From a virus (Duplodnaviria > Heunggongvirae > Uroviricota > Caudoviricetes), in IMG/VR virus record IMGVR_UViG_2534682158_000014: DNA of 38,748 nucleotides. One strand, given 5' to 3'. The number at the start of each line of letters is the position of its first letter. Position 1 is the first letter of the stretch. The translations under genes were made by a program, and so were the position numbers. The notes beneath the pieces were generated by a model. The model was not told the DNA's origin. It saw only the letters and a list, made by a program, of their open reading frames with translations, and did no database searches. Positions 1 to 36,969 of this stretch are shown piece by piece.

Positions 1-846
<846 letters not shown>

Positions 847-9971: not shown

Positions 9972-11303
9972 TTACTGAATGAATGACATTTGATTGATAT
10001 ATTTTATCAATAACTCTCTGGGTGTAGTACTACAAAAATTTAGGTGGTCATAATCAGTATAAACATTTGTGAATTTTTTAAGTTCTTCATCACTTTTAGG
10101 GGCAAATCGCGCATTAAGAGTAATGCTGTCTTTAATTATTCCGAAGAATACAATAGATATTTCAGGAATTTGCGTTCTTCTCTCATAAGAATAAGGTATT
10201 TCTTTTATGTTAAGCAGGTCTGCTAAATGAGATATAGATTCAGCGGTAATTTCTTGTTTTATTTTTTTCTTGTCACCAAAGCAATGTATGAAGACAGCTA
10301 CGACAAAGATCCTATTTATTAAAGGAGCACTGCTTTTGTACTCCTCGTCGTTTAACAGTTGAAAAATGTTAAGATTGCGTGAAAAAGTTTGTGTTTCACG
10401 TAAGGATAAGTTGGTTCGTTGAATTAAATCACGGATAAATCTACCAGATAAACTATTAATTTCATTTAGTGATTTTGTCTTGTCTACAAGGTAATTCCAA
10501 TATATAACAGATGTTTTACATACGACGTGACCTTTTATTAAACATGTGTCTGGAAGCGTGATGGTATATTTAATAAACTTGTCAAGATACTTTTGTGAGT
10601 TAATACTATAACCATAAATATGATTTATCGATGCTTTTAATTGTTCTGTGTTTGTAACTAAAATAAAAAAGACATTATTGATGTCAAAAATGTGTTTTAT
10701 TGTTTCAATGACATTTGTTGAAAAACTCGGCTTACATCGGTCTAATTCATCAATTATAATTACTATCTTTTGGTTTTCTGAAATACTTTCGATGCAAGAT
10801 TTAAGTGAATTTATGTTTTTCTCTGATTCCATATGGTCTTCAAGCAAATTTTCAATAGTCCCATCTATTGCTGCATTGCTTGCTTTCTTCATAGCATCTT
10901 GGAATTCTTCGGCAACTTCACTAGCCTCCTGTCGTAAAAACCAACCTGCACCAGCTTTTAGTACCGTTTTTAAACCAAATCGAATTGCAGGAAGGGATCT
11001 CTTAATGAAGTGTTGTTTTTCTTCCTCAGGCAAAATGCTAGCAATTGCAGAGGTTATGAGAAGTAATGGAGATTCTGCATGATCCCCTTTAAAGGCATCA
11101 ATATAAACAACTTTAGATTCGGTTTCTTGCTCAATAATGAGATTTTTCAGTTTGATACTAAATTCTGTTTTCCCTGTTCCCCATGCGCCGTCTATTACCA
11201 GTGGTGAAATGTCTGCCTCTGGTTTTAGCAACTTGATGATATTTTCAGCGATGTTTCTTCGTTGGAACTCGTCACGTTCAGTGAAAGATAGTGTATCTAA
11301 CAT
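9972..11303 (-). CDS. KAP-family P-loop NTPase, 443 aa, AT-rich accessory gene
   Basis: Walker A 'VIDGAWGTGKTEF' and Walker B 'IVIIIDELDRC'. Strongly AT-rich and oriented against the flanking late genes. Confidence 0.8.
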   Translation of the reverse strand: MLDTLSFTERDEFQRRNIAENIIKLLKPEADISPLVIDGAWGTGKTEFSIKLKNLIIEQETESKVVYIDAFKGDHAESPLLLITSAIASILPEEEKQHFIKRSLPAIRFGLKTVLKAGAGWFLRQEASEVAEEFQDAMKKASNAAIDGTIENLLEDHMESEKNINSLKSCIESISENQKIVIIIDELDRCKPSFSTNVIETIKHIFDINNVFFILVTNTEQLKASINHIYGYSINSQKYLDKFIKYTITLPDTCLIKGHVVCKTSVIYWNYLVDKTKSLNEINSLSGRFIRDLIQRTNLSLRETQTFSRNLNIFQLLNDEEYKSSAPLINRIFVVAVFIHCFGDKKKIKQEITAESISHLADLLNIKEIPYSYERRTQIPEISIVFFGIIKDSITLNARFAPKSDEELKKFTNVYTDYDHLNFCSTTPRELLIKYINQMSFIQ

Positions 11304-12961: not shown

Positions 12962-13522
12962 TTAAAGTACCCACCAGCGGATCGATTCCGTGGGTATGGT
13001 TGCAGCCTCGACTTGATGAACAATTCCCAACTCGGAGGCCCTTCCGGGATGAAGGATGGTTGCCGAAGTGATCAAATCCTTCCAATCAGCAATCTCACTT
13101 GGATTTTTCTTTTTTGTTTCAATATCCATGATTTGAATAAATCGATTTAGATCGTCATCGAGGCATGAAGCCCATTCTCTCAATCGTAGGTGATCTTCGC
13201 TGGGTGCGGCGAACCCCCAATGCAGTGGGTGAAGAAGGAAGCGAGAAAGTGGGTTGGCAGTTCGCACTTCTCCAGCCATATAGATCACGTTTGCGATTGA
13301 TTCAACATTACTGAGGTTATGCGTAGTAACCTTTACACCAAGTGACTTTAAAAAATTGTAAGCAGTAAAGCCTGAAACTGTATCTCCACCTTTGCTGGAA
13401 ATATAGAGCTTAATTTCTGTTGCTGGTTGATTAGTATTTGAAACTGCTTTTAAGCAGACATCCATCAGATTAGTTACAGAGGCAACTGTAACATCTGTCA
13501 AAAAATGTACCGTATGGATCAT
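12962..13522 (-). CDS. ClpP-fold (S14-like) serine peptidase homologue, 186 aa
   Basis: 'EIKLYISSKGGDTVSGFTAYNFLKSLGVKV...SNVESIANVIYMAGE...FLLHPLHWGF' aligns by eye to ClpP '[23 protein letters not shown]...GQAASMGAFLLTAG...MIHQPLGGY', with candidate Ser and His retained. Preceded by 'GAGGAG' on the minus strand. Confidence 0.55.
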   Translation of the reverse strand: MIHTVHFLTDVTVASVTNLMDVCLKAVSNTNQPATEIKLYISSKGGDTVSGFTAYNFLKSLGVKVTTHNLSNVESIANVIYMAGEVRTANPLSRFLLHPLHWGFAAPSEDHLRLREWASCLDDDLNRFIQIMDIETKKKNPSEIADWKDLITSATILHPGRASELGIVHQVEAATIPTESIRWWVL

Positions 13523-13600
13523 TTTTACTCCTCAATGGCAGGTCGCTAATGCAACAGGAAATGCAAATAATCGAATGTTATTAGAGCATCAAAGTAGAGC

Positions 13601-14149
13601 CTAGCTCTGTGGCGTGCTTAAGCATTTTGCTTCGTAATGTACCCTCATGGAAAACATAGCGAATAACATAATGAGCTTATCGCGTAAGCTTGTAGAGGAT
13701 CCCGTGAAACTTACAACCCTAGTTTCTGCTCCGTAAACCCCAAGCTTAAAATCTCTAATGGGGGTCAAGCTATCAGGGTAACCGTGCTCCATTAGACTTG
13801 TTAAGGAGTCAATCTCACTGTTAGTGATGTCAGAGTTGTTAATTTGATGTGAACGTTTGTTTCTGAAGTTGTTGAACCTTCGAATAAATTTGTTTAGCTC
13901 TGAGCTCATCCCATAGTTCATCGCAAGCTGAGCTTTAATGGCAAAATCCATGTTGATATTTTCGCCAAAACCGCTGAAGAAATCCCTGTTACCAGAGGCA
14001 CAGATAATCCAAGCTTCCAAGATTTGTTCAATCAAAAGGTGAGTGCGGAGATAGATACCAATGTCATCTTGGGACCGAACTATAGTCATTATTCTATCGG
14101 GTTGATGGGATGCTAAAGTCAACTCTTCAAAATGAGTAAAATCAAACAT
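13601..14149 (-). CDS. Hypothetical protein, 182 aa, with an R-x4-H motif (possible HEPN-like); first gene of the two-gene cassette
   Basis: 'FRNKRSHQ' fits R-x4-H. AT-rich. 'AAGGA' Shine-Dalgarno. No other recognisable domain. Confidence 0.5.
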   Translation of the reverse strand: MFDFTHFEELTLASHQPDRIMTIVRSQDDIGIYLRTHLLIEQILEAWIICASGNRDFFSGFGENINMDFAIKAQLAMNYGMSSELNKFIRRFNNFRNKRSHQINNSDITNSEIDSLTSLMEHGYPDSLTPIRDFKLGVYGAETRVVSFTGSSTSLRDKLIMLFAMFSMRVHYEAKCLSTPQS

Positions 14150-30785: not shown

Positions 30786-31830
30786 ATTTCAGCGCCCGAC
30801 GCTGGCAGAAAATATCAGTATGCTCCGTAACGATTTATTCGCCAGGCTGGACGTCAGCGACACGCTCCGGCGCATGGATGAAGACGTGCGGGCAAAGGTG
30901 TATGCGGCGGCGCTGCATACGGTTTACGGGTACATCGATTATCTGGCAATGAATATGCTGCCTGACCTGTGCGATGAGTCCTGGCTGGCGCGACATGCTG
31001 CGATGAAACGGTGTCCGCGCAAGGGGGCCACGGCTGCCAGCGGGTATATGCGCTGGGAAGGTGTCAGCGATGGCCTGAAGGTGACTGCCGGAAGCGTGAT
31101 TCAGCGCGATGACCTGGTTCAGTACACGGCAACTGCCGATGCAACCAGCTCCGGTGGTGTCCTGCGCGTGCCGATCGCCTGCTCAAGTGCAGGCGCGGTC
31201 GGTAACGCTGACGACGGTACGTCATTAATCCTGGTCACGCCGGTGAATGGTCTGCCGTCTTCCGGCGTGGCAGATACCCTGACAGGTGGATTTGATACTG
31301 AAGAGCTGGAAACGTGGCGCGCCCGCGTCATTGAGCGGTATTACTGGACGCCTCAGGGCGGGGCTGACGGGGACTATGTCGTCTGGGCTAAAGAAGTGCC
31401 CGGCATTACCCGCGCATGGACATACCGTCACTGGATGGGAACGGGAACTGTCGGTGTGATGATTGCCAGCAGTGACCTGATTAATCCCATTCCGGAAGAA
31501 TCAACGGAAACGGCGGCAAGACAACATATCGAGCCACTGGCCCCGGTGGCAGGCTCTGATTTGTATGTGTTCAGGCCGGTGGCACATACGGTGGATTTTC
31601 ATATCCGCGTGACGCCGGACACACCGGAAATACGGGCTGCCATCACCGCGGAGTTGCGTTCGTTCCTGCTGCGTGATGGTTATCCGCAGGGAGAACTGAA
31701 GGTATCGCGTATCAGTGAGGCGATTTCCGGTGCGAACGGGGAATACAGCCATCAGTTGCTTGCACCGGCAGACAATATCTCCATTGCAAAAAATGAACTG
31801 GCGGTTCTGGGGACGATTTCATGGACGTGA
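30772..31830 (+). CDS. Baseplate J-like protein (Mu gp47)
   Basis: 352 aa, position. Confidence 0.8.
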
Positions 31831-32405
31831 CAAACGATGATTACATCCGTCTGTTGTCGGCACTGTTGCCCCCCGGTCCGGCGTGGTCAGCCAGCGATCC
31901 GGCGATTGCCGGTGCGGCACCGTCATTAACCCGTGTTCATCAGCGTGCGGATGCCCTGATGCGGGAGCTGGATCCGCGCACCACCACTGAACTGATAAAC
32001 CGCTGGGAGCGTCTGTGCGGTCTGCCGGATGAATGTATTCCCGCAGGGACACAGACCCTTCGTCAGCGTCAGCAACGGCTGGATGCGAAGGTTAACCTGG
32101 CGGGCAGCATCAACGAGAATTTTTATCTTGCACAGCTTGCTGCCCTGGGCAGACCAGATGCCAACATCACGCGATACGACAAAAGCACGTTCACCTGCTC
32201 ATCGGCCTGTACTGACGCGGTGAATGCGCCGGAATGGCGGTATTACTGGCAGGTCAACATGCCAGCTGCCACCAACACCACCTGGATGACATGTGGCGAT
32301 CCCTGTGATTCCGCACTGCGTATCTGGGGCGACACCGTTGTCGAGTGTGTGCTTAACAAACTCTGCCCGTCGCATACCTACGTAATTTTTAAATATCCGG
32401 AGTAA
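31821..32405 (+). CDS. Tail protein (Mu gp48 / YmfQ-like)
   Basis: Position between baseplate J and the tail fibre. Confidence 0.65.
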
Positions 32406-32408
32406 TCC

Positions 32409-33341
32409 ATGCATCGTATAGACACGAAAACCGCGCAGAAGGATAAGTTCGGCGCGGGTAAGAACGGTTTTACCCGTGGTAACCCCCAGACCGGCACACC
32501 TGCCACCGATCTGGATGATGACTACTTTGACATGTTGCAGGAAGAACTTTGTAGCGTGGTGGAGGCCTCCGGTGCCAGCCTGGAGAAGGAGCGGCACGAC
32601 CAGTTGCTTACCGCGCTTCGTGCGCTGCTGTTAAGCCGCAAGAATCCGTTTGGTGATATCAAATCGGATGGCACGGTGAAAACGGCTCTCGAAAACCTTG
32701 GTTTGGGAGATGGCTCGGGGCGTTACAGCAAAACTGTCGTTTTTTCATCGTCGGGTTCATATACGTGGCCAGCTGACGTAAAACGAATTGACGTTATTCT
32801 GACTGCGGGGGGCGGCGGTGGCGGTGGATGTAACGCGGAGAACGCAAATCAGACATTTTCAGGGGCTGGCGGAGGAGCCGGAGGTACTGTTTTTGCCACT
32901 ATTTATGCGACAGACAACGATGCCGGGCCAGGGACCTATACAGTGACAATTGGTAGCGGTGGTAGTGGTGCCAATGGGCCAGGGTCTGGAAATAATGGCG
33001 GTCATAGTTCGTTCATGACATTAACTGCGCTCGGCGGCCAGGGTGGGCAATGGGGCGGCGCTACAAATACCGCTGGCGGGCGCGGTGGCTCAGGCTCTGG
33101 CGGTTATAAAACTGAACAAGGCGGAGACGGTTCAGACGGACAGGCGGGCCAGGCGCTATTAGTAGGCAATGGGGCATCGAGCTATTGGGGTGGCGGCGGC
33201 CGCGCTGGGCAACTGAGCGGTAATCCTGGAGTTTGCTCTGGCTCCGGCGGCGGGGGTGCATACGATAATAGCTATTCACACACGTCAGGACGTGGCGGGC
33301 ACGGAGCTAATGGCGTGCTGGTAATTCGGGAGTACATGTAA
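32409..33341 (+). CDS. Tail fibre protein with a Gly-rich C-terminal region
   Basis: N-terminal '[46 protein letters not shown]' fibre-attachment domain. The C-terminal ~200 aa are dominated by GGxGG / GSG repeats. Confidence 0.7.
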
Positions 33342-33746
33342 ATGAATGATATCTATGCAGTTGTTGATAATAACGTTGTTATTAATGTCATTATCTGGGA
33401 CGGAATTTCTGAATGGAAACCAGAGGCTGGTAATTTAGTTCCGTTAAACGGCGATGCTGGCATCGGTTGGTCATATTCAGACGGAGTATTTACCGTGCCA
33501 CCTCCCCCAGAACGCTCTCACAACGCGTTAGTTGCGGAGGCTGAGCTGCAGAAATCAGCACTACTGACCGTAGCAAATAACGCAATAGCACCGCTGCAGG
33601 ATGCCGTTGATTTGGAAATGGTGACAGACGATGAACAGGCGTTACTGCTGGCGTGGAAAAAATACAGGGTACTGCTGAACCGTGTTGATACCTCAGCGGC
33701 ACCCGAAATAGAGTGGCCTACGCAACCGGGGGAGCGGGCCAGTTGA
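33342..33746 (+). CDS. Tail fibre assembly protein (Tfa)
   Basis: '[21 protein letters not shown]...' and the C-terminal '[11 protein letters not shown]' motif typical of Tfa proteins. Confidence 0.8.
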
Positions 33747-33867
33747 TATCAGGCGCAGCGTCAGCATCAACTGCTGTCACTGCGTCGATGTAGTCGAGTA
33801 CCGCATTCAGCCGCGTTTTTTCATCATCAGTCAGTTTGCGGCCTGCACTTCTCCGTTGACATCTTTG
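33721..33867 (-). pseudogene. Inverted C-terminal remnant of a second tail-fibre-assembly gene
   Basis: Minus-strand frame between stops reads '[49 protein letters not shown]' with no start codon. Its C-terminal motif parallels that of the + strand Tfa, and the two 3' ends overlap by about 26 nt. Confidence 0.5.
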
Positions 33868-34002
33868 TTATATGGTACAACTGCGCAGAGGCCTGTCTCT
33901 TCAATTGTGCCAGTTGAATACTACGATACAACGCTAGGTCTTCCAATATGGACACAGTATCATCTGAATGGAAGAGGGCGTATGGTACAAGTGTATGATA
34001 AT

Positions 34003-34030
34003 GCGGGTGCTTAGCACCCGCTTATTTAAT
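34003..34030. terminator. Hairpin terminator between the tfa (+) and gtrC-like (-) genes
   Basis: 'gcgggtgc-tta-gcacccgc' followed by 'ttatttaatt'. Confidence 0.55.
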
Positions 34031-35496
34031 TAATTGCAGTTGAATGTAATGTTTTTATCGTAAACAAAAATCTTCTTATCTCCGACGTCAATAACCTTTG
34101 ATGGATTACCAATCTCTTTAATTGTTATATTTCTCATAACCTCGTCATCTGTAATTATGAAATTTCCTCCGCGCTCATACCAATAGTTTTTTGACAACCA
34201 TTTATTGCATGCAAGTATATTCAAACCTCGGTTTACATCAATCGGAGCAATTGATATGTCTCCATCTATACTTGCTGATGAAGCAAACCAGAAAGATGCA
34301 TACCCGTTTGTGAGGTTATTCTGCCTTACAGTGTGTTTTATCTGATTTATAATATCATTAGAATTGTCTTTTTTTTCATGCATATAAATAGAACAAAAGA
34401 GAATAAATGTTGTAACAACCCCTAATGCGATGAATTTCCACCCTCTGGAGTTGTTAGATCTGCCAATAACAACAGGTGCTAGTATAAAAAATGGAACGAT
34501 ATATCTTATAGTCCATTCATCTATTGGACGGTTACTTGCAAGGTATGCTGGTATCATTATAATACAAGCTATACATATAGCCATATTGATCATGGAGGTT
34601 TTGAATATTTCCTTTACTGACATTGCAACTAATATAAGAAGTAAAATCATTACAACAAAACAAAAAACAGAAATAAGCGCTGTAATATCAGAAGGTGGCT
34701 TGCCAAAGAAGAAAGCTCCACTGTATAGGAGGAATCCTTTTACGAATAAGTATAAATTATTCAGGATATCATCAAATGCAACAAATGTTGGATCTGGAAC
34801 GCCTGGCAAAATGTACCAGTTATGAGCTCTTGCGTACATGGTCATAATTTTTGATGCAACATATGCAAATATAGTTGCAACTAGTATGATCAGATTTTTT
34901 TGGCTTTTGGTTTTTACTATAAAAATCACTGATGATATTGCTACTGGTGCAATAATGAGTAGCTTTATGATGTCATCACTGAAACAAGCTAGAGCTAACA
35001 CTAAAATATAAAGAGATAGAGAAATTAACGATCTTGTTTTGGAAAAATTGTCTAACATTATGAAGCAAAACAACATGGATACATATGTGCCGACATGTAT
35101 CACAGGTATTAATACGTTTAATACTGCAAACCCAGAAGGCAGCGCAACGCAAAATGAAATGGCCCATAACGATGAAAGCCTTTCTTTTGAAAGATAAAAT
35201 GTCATCAATGTAACCATTGAATACATAATTGCCGGTATGCAGTATGCTTGGTACTGTCCGTACCAGAATACCTTTGAAGCAAGCCCGTACCATATTATGT
35301 CTGTAAAATAGAATGATACTGTAGAGAGATACCATCCACTAAGCGTCCAATTTCCGTCCGCAATGTCCTTACCCTCAAGAAGTCCAGAAACAGCATCCGA
35401 ACTTGGCAAAATCTGTTTTGAAATCGAGGCGTAGAAGAAAGTCAAGAATATAAATCCAATGATGTATATGGCTGTTTTTTTTATATTTAAAGTCAT
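34030..35496 (-). CDS. GtrC-type serotype-specific O-antigen glucosyltransferase (polytopic membrane protein)
   Basis: 488 aa, multiple TM segments, AT-rich, last gene of a gtrA–gtrB–gtrC arrangement. Confidence 0.6.
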   Translation of the reverse strand: MTLNIKKTAIYIIGFIFLTFFYASISKQILPSSDAVSGLLEGKDIADGNWTLSGWYLSTVSFYFTDIIWYGLASKVFWYGQYQAYCIPAIMYSMVTLMTFYLSKERLSSLWAISFCVALPSGFAVLNVLIPVIHVGTYVSMLFCFIMLDNFSKTRSLISLSLYILVLALACFSDDIIKLLIIAPVAISSVIFIVKTKSQKNLIILVATIFAYVASKIMTMYARAHNWYILPGVPDPTFVAFDDILNNLYLFVKGFLLYSGAFFFGKPPSDITALISVFCFVVMILLLILVAMSVKEIFKTSMINMAICIACIIMIPAYLASNRPIDEWTIRYIVPFFILAPVVIGRSNNSRGWKFIALGVVTTFILFCSIYMHEKKDNSNDIINQIKHTVRQNNLTNGYASFWFASSASIDGDISIAPIDVNRGLNILACNKWLSKNYWYERGGNFIITDDEVMRNITIKEIGNPSKVIDVGDKKIFVYDKNITFNCN

Positions 35497-35497
35497 T

Positions 35498-36412
35498 TTA
35501 CTTATCCTTTAGAATGTATCTTGGTCGCTGCTTAACTTCAACATAAATTCTTCCTATATACTCTCCAAGAACTCCTATGCCTATTAACTGAACTCCACCA
35601 AGAAACAATATTGATACAATGATAGAAGGGTAACCTGGAACACTATTTCCAAACATCAATTTATCAGCAATCATCCATGCTCCATAAAGGAATGATAAGG
35701 TTGCCACAAACAGGCCTATATAAGTCCACATGCGCAAAGGGAAAGTAGAAAAGCTAGTGATCCCTTCCAGCGCCAAGTTCCATAGCTTCCATCCATTGAA
35801 CTTTGTGCTTCCTGCAACTCGTTCTGCTCGCGCATATTCTACGACATCGGTTCGACCACCAACCCAGCTCAGCACACCCTTCATAAACAGGTTTCGTTCT
35901 GGCATGAGCTTAATGTTTTCTACTACTTCGCGAGACATGAGCCGGAAGTCGCCAACATTTTCTTCTATCTTAGGGTTGCTGATTTTGTTATGAAGCTTAT
36001 AGAACCACTCAGCAGATTTACGCTTCAGCCTGCTGTCAGTGGAGCGGTCAGAGCGTTTAGCCAGAACCATATCTGCACCGGCCTGCCATTTCTCTATCAA
36101 GTGAGGAATAACTTCGATAGGGTCTTGCAGATCAACGTCAATCGGGATAATTGCCTCCCCGGTAGCATGGTCCAGACCTGCGAACAGGGCGGGTTCTTTG
36201 CCGAAGTTACGTGTGAACGACAGCGAAACAACAAGCGGGTCGGCAACAGCAAGCTCGTTGATAATTGATTCTGTAGCGTCTTTGCTGCCATCGTTTATGA
36301 AGACTATCTCGACTTCATGCTGCTGAAGCCCTTCAAATTCGCGCACAGTTTTATAAAAAATAGGTATCGTGGCCTCTTCGTTAAAGACCGGAACGACTAA
36401 AGAAATTTTCAT
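35498..36412 (-). CDS. gtrB: GtrB bactoprenol glucosyltransferase (GT2 family)
   Basis: '[13 protein letters not shown]...IFINDGSKD' GT2 N-terminus, 'IDVDLQD' DxD region and two C-terminal TM helices. Confidence 0.9.
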
Positions 36413-36771
36413 TTCGCATCCCTAAAGACAATGAACTTTGAATAGACGAAACCGCACACCAGGCTGATGGCGGAGAAGGTGACAAGAGTTATCATCGGGG
36501 GAAGTGCGCATCTATCAGCAGCCCATCCAACAGTAGCACTGAGTGTTCCCATGAACCCGACATATAACATGTAGCGCATCGTTGTAGTTGATGCTTTGAA
36601 TGTGAATTTTGCATTCGCGAAGAAGCTAAAACTCACAGCCACAACGAAACCTGCGAAGTTTGCCAGAGCCTGATTGGTATGCGCGGCATAGATACATACA
36701 CCAAAAACCACCCAGTGTATAAGTGTGTTCAGCACACCAATCGAGGTGTACCTTGCAAATATATTTAACAT
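36409..36771 (-). CDS. gtrA: GtrA flippase (small four-TM protein)
   Basis: 120 aa hydrophobic protein immediately upstream of, and overlapping, gtrB. Confidence 0.8.
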
Positions 36772-36969
36772 TTATTTAATCAATGAGTTCTGAAAGGTAT
36801 GAAGTCTATCATCCAAGTCTCAATCGATCGATACTTGCGGTAGTTGATGAGGAAAACTCTGGTACACAAAGCTTTGCACTGGACTGCAAGGTGTTGTGCT
36901 TCTCTGGAGTGCGATATGTTTGATGACAAAAAATTAGCGCAAGAGGACAAAAAATCACCTTGCGCTAAT

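Follow-up and report, generated by a model that had tools for sequence, protein, structure and literature searches.

A truncated, convergent tail-fibre assembly gene beside gtrCBA in an Escherichia coli prophage: probable relic of a Pin/Cin-type invertible cassette

The tail-fibre locus and its prophage

The window, the whole 38,748-nt stretch of DNA that was analysed, is E. coli DNA 100% identical to strain M00057. It carries an SfV/e14-type prophage with a Mu-like baseplate, bordered by IS elements at the left and by ybhB/bioA at the right. At the locus considered here, a ymfQ-like baseplate gene is followed by a tail-fibre gene and by an intact tail-fibre assembly gene, tfa, whose 3′ end overlaps that of a minus-strand fragment of a second such gene, tfa′. 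Beyond tfa′ lie a short junction, the 3′ end of a P22-like tailspike gene and the convergent genes gtrC, gtrB and gtrA (Table 1).

At the left end of the prophage (window 1–371 and the left flank in M00057), IS3-family and IS30 elements interrupt the sequence, and the annotation contains no integrase. Excision is probably no longer possible, although the morphogenesis genes look intact. Reverse-oriented cargo occurs in the late region at 9972–11303 (−) and 12962–14149 (−). A KAP-family NTPase is encoded between the Q antiterminator and the holin, and the lysis and terminase genes are separated by a ClpP-like protease gene and a hypothetical gene. These late-region cargo genes may be morons or defence genes.

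Table 1. Positions of features at the tail-fibre locus, numbered from the first base of the window.
Feature	Position	Strand	Description
ymfQ-like baseplate gene	31821–32405	+	
Tail-fibre gene	32409–33341	+	310 aa; continuous ORF
Orphan Pin-type crossover site	32686–32711	none	CTCTCGAAAACCTTGGTTTGGGAGAT, 26 bp; codes ..ALENLGLG..
tfa, intact tail-fibre assembly (chaperone) gene	33342–33746	+	134 aa; ORF; Caudo_TAP E = 1.9e-32
tfa′ remnant	33718–33846	−	last ~43 codons of a TfaE/P1-U′-type tail-fibre assembly gene
Dual-strand coding overlap	33718–33746	both	29 nt; last 9 codons and stop of tfa (+) and of tfa′ (−)
Junction, no assignable origin	33847–33873	none	27 nt; from the end of tfa′ homology (33846) to the start of tailspike homology (33874)
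P22-like tailspike gene remnant	33874–33998	+	last 42 codons and stop; motif GTTAQRP..YYDTTLGLPIW
GC-rich hairpin	34003–34021	none	GCGGGTGCTTAGCACCCGC; T-rich tail after it; inside the block 99.3% identical to a P22-like prophage (L011)
gtrC	34030–35496	−	ORF; PGAP name
gtrB	35498–36412	−	ORF; Pfam Glycos_transf_2; PGAP name
gtrA	36409–36771	−	ORF; Pfam GtrA_DPMS_TM; PGAP name

A live tfa gene and the remnant of a second

The plus-strand tfa encodes a full-length Caudo_TAP domain with a start codon, and its product is 61% identical to SfIV orf21 over 80 aa. On the minus strand, the initial annotation had recognised an open frame without a start codon as a Tfa-like C-terminus, and this reading was borne out. 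Translation of the minus strand from 34029 to 33718 gave a frame of 49 codons (33721–33867) with no usable start and a stop codon at 33718–33720; its product agrees exactly with the peptide quoted in that annotation. The frame matched PF02413 (Caudo_TAP) with E = 6.1e-11 and 43 bits (cut-off 22.1), and the match covered profile positions 94–130 of 131, the extreme C-terminus. Correspondingly, residues 156–200 of e14 TfaE aligned by tblastn to 33855–33721 with 67% identity, and blastp comparisons of the remnant gave identities of 83% with the Tfa encoded on the minus strand of a P1-like E. coli plasmid and of 71% with both e14 TfaE and SfIV orf22. These Pfam, tblastn and blastp matches dispose of the objection that the frame might have no real similarity to Tfa proteins. 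In all comparisons at the nucleotide level (SfIV, e14 and the P1-like plasmid), homology ended at 33846.

Lacking a start codon and a full-length PF02413 domain, tfa′ is a pseudogene fragment, and no promoter-like site was found upstream of it on the minus strand. PGAP labels 33718–33846 as ‘tail fiber assembly protein, incomplete, missing N-terminus’ (pseudogene), and the same partial tfa annotation is present in at least 67 E. coli genomes.

The 3′ ends of the two genes do overlap, as originally proposed, although the overlap is 29 nt long and not about 26 nt. A further objection, that the apparent remnant is merely the complement of conserved tfa codons, fails because about 100 of the 129 tfa′ homologous bases lie outside the plus-strand gene, leaving 29 inside it. 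The first 29 nt of tfa′ have been kept because they also code for the last nine codons and stop of the live tfa. The remnant is a non-functional fossil, constrained solely in these 29 shared nucleotides; no function was inferred for its other ~100 nt.

No close (>90%) full-length copy of the tfa′ allele was found, nor any longer copy at >90% in E. coli genomes, and a word-indexed protein search for the allele returned just eight short fragments of 24–57 aa. Likewise, no intact cassette with the glycine-rich fibre tip of the window was found. A related-locus search with the plus-strand Tfa yielded a single Providencia locus, with neither a convergent tfa′ nor Pin. When 33300–34040 was compared with the phage collection, megablast returned nothing and a more sensitive blastn mode found SfIV, at 71%.

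An orphan crossover site in the tail-fibre gene

The tail-fibre protein is a fusion: its StfP-type constant N-terminus (about aa 1–100) meets, at the crossover site, a variable tip rich in glycine, in which the Pfam domain Gly_rich_2 spans aa 114–307 (E = 1e-18). The constant part thus lies outside the segment that would invert, and the variable part begins at the site. Bases 32300–32713 show 97% nucleotide identity to e14 ymfQ/stfP and 96% to SfIV. The e14 ymfQ–stfP region is collinear with the window as far as 32713. This point coincides exactly with the e14 crossover site, and the two sequences diverge beyond it; a short stretch, 32693–32716, also matches the right-hand site of e14 in inverted orientation. 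The 26-bp site in the window is identical to the e14 left site at 25 of 26 positions, matches the right site too, and includes TTGGTTTGGGAGATGG, the published e14 inverted repeat being TTGGTTTGGGAGAAGG (PMC12529663).

Homology to the constant fibre part ends at 32710–32716 in about 1,570 other E. coli genomes, which confirms the crossover site as the constant/variable joint. Among 5,426 complete E. coli genomes, 1,632 carry the StfP-type N-terminus (32600–32716, ending at the site), with many different tips attached, which makes the site a mosaic joint of very frequent occurrence. In the PGAP annotation the tail-fibre gene is divided in two, an ‘stfP pseudogene’ (32409–32715) and a ‘glycine-rich domain-containing protein’ (32703–33341). 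This split looks like an annotation artefact of the mosaic joint, because the gene is one uninterrupted frame of 310 codons.

The remaining parts of an invertible cassette were sought in the window. Of the crossover repeats, the left site survives and a second copy does not: at ≤3 mismatches the site occurs once in the window (chance expectation 0.02), where a cassette would have two sites of ~26 bp in inverted orientation. PinE and Cin-like recombinase queries gave no tblastn match at E < 1 anywhere in the 38.7 kb, no invertase gene adjoins the segment, and no serine recombinase appears in the PGAP annotation of the 100%-identical prophage in M00057. A tblastn search of the window for a StfE-like alternative tip gave nothing meaningful. 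The invertase and the alternative fibre gene are thus missing, as had been noted from the initial reading. In place of two complete convergent tfa genes, each with its own tip, the locus has an intact fibre–tfa pair on the plus strand and ~43 tfa′ codons on the minus strand.

In two E. coli genome searches covering the left and right boundaries, 67 records each time were collinear with the window, and among these assemblies none was inverted. The single site, the lack of an invertase and the 67 collinear records with no inverted form indicate that the cassette is locked in a single orientation.

Tailspike fragment, junction and gtr module

The DNA immediately beyond the junction matches tailspike aa 546–587 of 587 by tblastn (E = 6e-9), and alignment with a P22-like prophage (L011) revealed a frameshift caused by the loss of 4 bp after 33951. 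An exhaustive profile search with the 33859–34014 frame recovered GTTAQRP..YYDTTLG.PIW as a widespread repeated motif and nothing more; the origin of the frame was settled by DNA homology to the annotated tailspike gene. The L011 tailspike contains the Pfam domain Head_binding (E = 3e-66), its neighbour is a P22 injectosome protein, and its gene lies tail-to-tail with the same gtrC as in the window.

In other E. coli strains this P22-like prophage likewise lies at ybhB/bioA, and it is 99.3% identical to the window across 33919–36900; as 36900 is the end of the query, the identical block reaches at least that far. The tailspike fossil shows that a P22-like prophage at this att site either supplied the gtr module or exchanged it. 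The hairpin at 34003–34021 came with the tailspike/gtrC block and is likely to be a terminator that separates the late operon from gtrC, which converges with it. The module itself (34030–36771, minus strand) is an O-antigen glucosylation module that converges with the tail genes in the order C-B-A, a layout equal to that of SfV, SfI, SfIV and CPS-53. Such modules comprise a GtrA flippase, a GT2 bactoprenol glucosyltransferase (GtrB) and a serotype-specific membrane protein (GtrC). The product at the gtrC position has 488 aa and no family match.

The junction is shared beyond this gtrC type. In strains GN06156 and CE0007a, which have other gtrC types, the join between tfa′ and the tailspike fragment is identical to that in the window, and the 27 nt between them are unchanged. 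GN06156 diverges from the window at 33951 and CE0007a at 33988, in both cases only past the conserved core coding for YDTTLGLPIW, which appears to be a crossover arm for gtrC allele swaps. In all 67–75 E. coli loci with the allele, the end of tfa′ is joined to tailspike-derived DNA with 27 unassigned bases between.

Comparison with known invertible cassettes

Invertible tail-fibre cassettes have been known since the 1980s. The C segment of P1 with Cin, represented here by the P1-like E. coli plasmid, and the G segment of Mu with Gin are switches in which a serine invertase replaces one fibre tip and its Tfa by another such pair, and both are intact and functional. The P segment of e14 (1,797 bp; stfP-tfaP-tfaE-stfE, beside pinE) has been shown experimentally to invert, between TTGGTTTGGGAGAAGG repeats (PMC12529663; PMC4272514), and Pin enzymes of other prophages invert it in trans (PMC12529663).

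A tail-to-tail overlap of 29 nt with homologous sequence was found in e14 tfaP/tfaE, the P1-like C segment, SfIV orf21/22, CPS-53 yfdK/tfaS and the window, and the minus-strand Tfa of the P1-like plasmid is the closest full-length relative of tfa′. In Mu, by contrast, U and U′ are 28 bp apart with no overlap, and neither showed significant similarity to the remnant. The initial annotation had regarded tail-to-tail tfa genes as the signature of Gin/Cin/Pin-type cassettes and had suggested alignment to Mu G, P1 C and e14 P. The comparisons with e14 and the P1-like segment agree with that view; because of the 28-bp gap in Mu, the locus is to be modelled on the geometry of e14/P1, not on that of Mu G.

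The window resembles e14 in its baseplate gene ymfQ and constant fibre N-terminus, its crossover site, its overlap and its TfaE-type remnant. However, e14 retains a full tfaE, the stfE tip, the right site and pinE, and it inverts, whereas the window has ~43 tfa′ codons, one site, no invertase, and a different (glycine-rich) tip and tfa allele.

The cryptic K-12 prophage CPS-53 (yfdL-yfdK-tfaS-yodE-yfdI/H/G-intS) similarly has a truncated TfaE-type gene that overlaps yfdK and adjoins a gtrCBA module, without an invertase. It differs in that tfaS, which shares 94% identity with TfaE, keeps 95–100 codons and ends at another junction, and in that the prophage lies at the argW site. The neighbour of tfaS is yodE, whereas that of tfa′ is the tailspike fragment; in CPS-53 (locus L006, 5498–5644) the spacer between tfaS and gtrC (yfdI) holds yodE, a small toxic-protein gene. 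The K-12 pseudogene tfaS is a relic of the same kind as tfa′.

Shigella phage SfIV shares the backbone up to the crossover site, a convergent tfa′ with the same overlap and a gtr module after it. Unlike the window, it has a nearly full-length orf22 (174 aa), cut by ISEhe3. The SfIV study regarded its product as a further tail-fibre assembly protein peculiar to this phage and made no connection with inversion (PMC3851460).

Compared with the intact, 200-aa TfaE of e14, which is accompanied by stfE and pinE, the tfa′ sequence retained beside gtrC amounts to residues 30–200 (171 aa) in SfIV (then ISEhe3), 105–199 (95 aa) in CPS-53 tfaS, about 156–200 (about 45 aa) in the window, and nothing in SfV or SfI. 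Judged by these lengths, the relatives can be read as a decay series running from e14 through SfIV, CPS-53 and the window to SfV/SfI.

How the switch may have been lost

Together, these data support the identification of tfa′ as the real, dead remnant of a second tail-fibre chaperone gene from a Pin/Cin-type invertible cassette, and the cassette was very probably locked by a single join of tfa′ to tailspike DNA that brought in gtrCBA. As reconstructed from homologues, the ancestor would have been an SfV/e14-type myovirus with a Mu-like baseplate and a Pin/Cin-type host-range cassette laid out as in e14. In the proposed order, a constant fibre N-terminus and a crossover site preceded a variable tip and tfa, which faced tfa′ and the alternative tip; a further crossover site and a serine invertase gene completed the cassette. 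Each inversion between the sites would have exchanged one tip and its chaperone for the other pair.

It is proposed that switch loss and gtr gain were then one event, an illegitimate recombination that joined tfa′ at about codon 156 to a point 42 codons before the end of a P22-like tailspike gene. Through this one join, tfa′ would have lost three quarters of its length from the N-terminal end; the alternative tip, the invertase and the right crossover site would have gone with it, and gtrCBA would have been brought in. The switch would thereby have been locked with the glycine-rich tip and its Tfa alone expressible. The orphan left site, which codes for the conserved ENLGLG fibre joint, and the 129-nt tfa′ fossil would be what is left of the cassette. 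Later, gtrC alleles may have been exchanged by homologous recombination, for which the part of the tailspike fragment that codes for YDTTLGLPIW would have provided a homology arm.

The tailspike scrap beside tfa′ and the 99.3%-identical gtr block support loss of the switch when the gtr module was joined. The suggestion in the initial annotation that the two had coincided is strengthened in particular by the discovery, within 27 nt of tfa′ and beside gtrC, of a P22-type tailspike 3′ fragment. The different junctions of SfIV and CPS-53 suggest that, across these relatives, the switch was lost repeatedly or stepwise.

A two-step course, in which the stf′–pin part was deleted first and the tailspike-3′/gtrCBA block was later added or swapped in beside an already truncated tfa′ as an unrelated event, is unlikely, though its probability is far from negligible. 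Its appeal is that the truncation points differ among gtr-carrying relatives, SfIV having an almost full tfa′ followed by ISEhe3 and CPS-53 having 95 residues followed by yodE, and that homologous recombination has clearly swapped gtrC alleles at a later time. However, the intermediate state that it predicts was not found, and the tfa′–tailspike join is common to all the E. coli loci with the allele. Far less probable still is an origin of tfa′ by local inverted duplication of the 3′ end of the phage's own tfa, unrelated to any invertible cassette. The two genes do lie tail-to-tail and W-P-x-x-P endings are coded on both strands. Yet the remnant is only 44% identical to the plus-strand Tfa of the window by blastp, against 83% for the P1-like minus-strand Tfa and 71% for TfaE, which argues against a recent local duplication; the overlap is homologous to that of intact cassettes, and the fibre gene contains an e14-type crossover site.

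There is equally little probability that the switch still works, through a Pin-family invertase of another prophage acting in trans on the orphan site and a cryptic partner such as the AAACCTCGGTTT core at 34223–34234. The precedent is the inversion of the e14 P segment by Pin enzymes of other prophages (PMC12529663), and an exact AAACCNNGGTTT core, an invertase-core-like palindrome in frame with the fibre joint, is indeed present at that position in gtrC. As a cryptic right-hand site, however, this core was rejected: its central dinucleotide is TC as against TT, and its flanks match poorly. The surrounding 26-mer is identical in gtrC of the P22-like prophage, which has no tfa system, so the core is native to gtrC and its resemblance to a site is probably due to chance. 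In addition, no alternative tip is coded, the 67 records of each search are all collinear, and examination of the icd locus showed that the host strain M00057 has no e14 there.

There is also a slim chance that the orphan site, of the TTGGTTTGGGAGA type, is not inert and is paired by Pin-family invertases in trans with P-segment sites elsewhere in the chromosome. If so, a new tip-plus-chaperone cassette could be imported or large inter-prophage inversions could occur, and the ‘locked’ fibre gene would stay a docking point for host-range modules.

Implications for prophage evolution

Relics of this kind are already known, as PGAP pseudogenes and as tfaS in K-12. A prophage fossil such as tfa′ is ordinary, matters little beyond correct annotation and opens no new question on DNA inversion. 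It does explain the partial tfa gene in RefSeq at this locus, and with a locked cassette the host range of the prophage would be fixed to a single fibre tip.

The locus also records an exchange of modules between phage families, in which an SfV/e14-type myovirus appears to have received, within its invertible cassette, gtrCBA and a scrap of a P22-type tailspike gene. The tailspike scrap would then have served as a homology arm for gtrC allele swaps, and this example may help to reconstruct how serotype-converting modules move between prophages.
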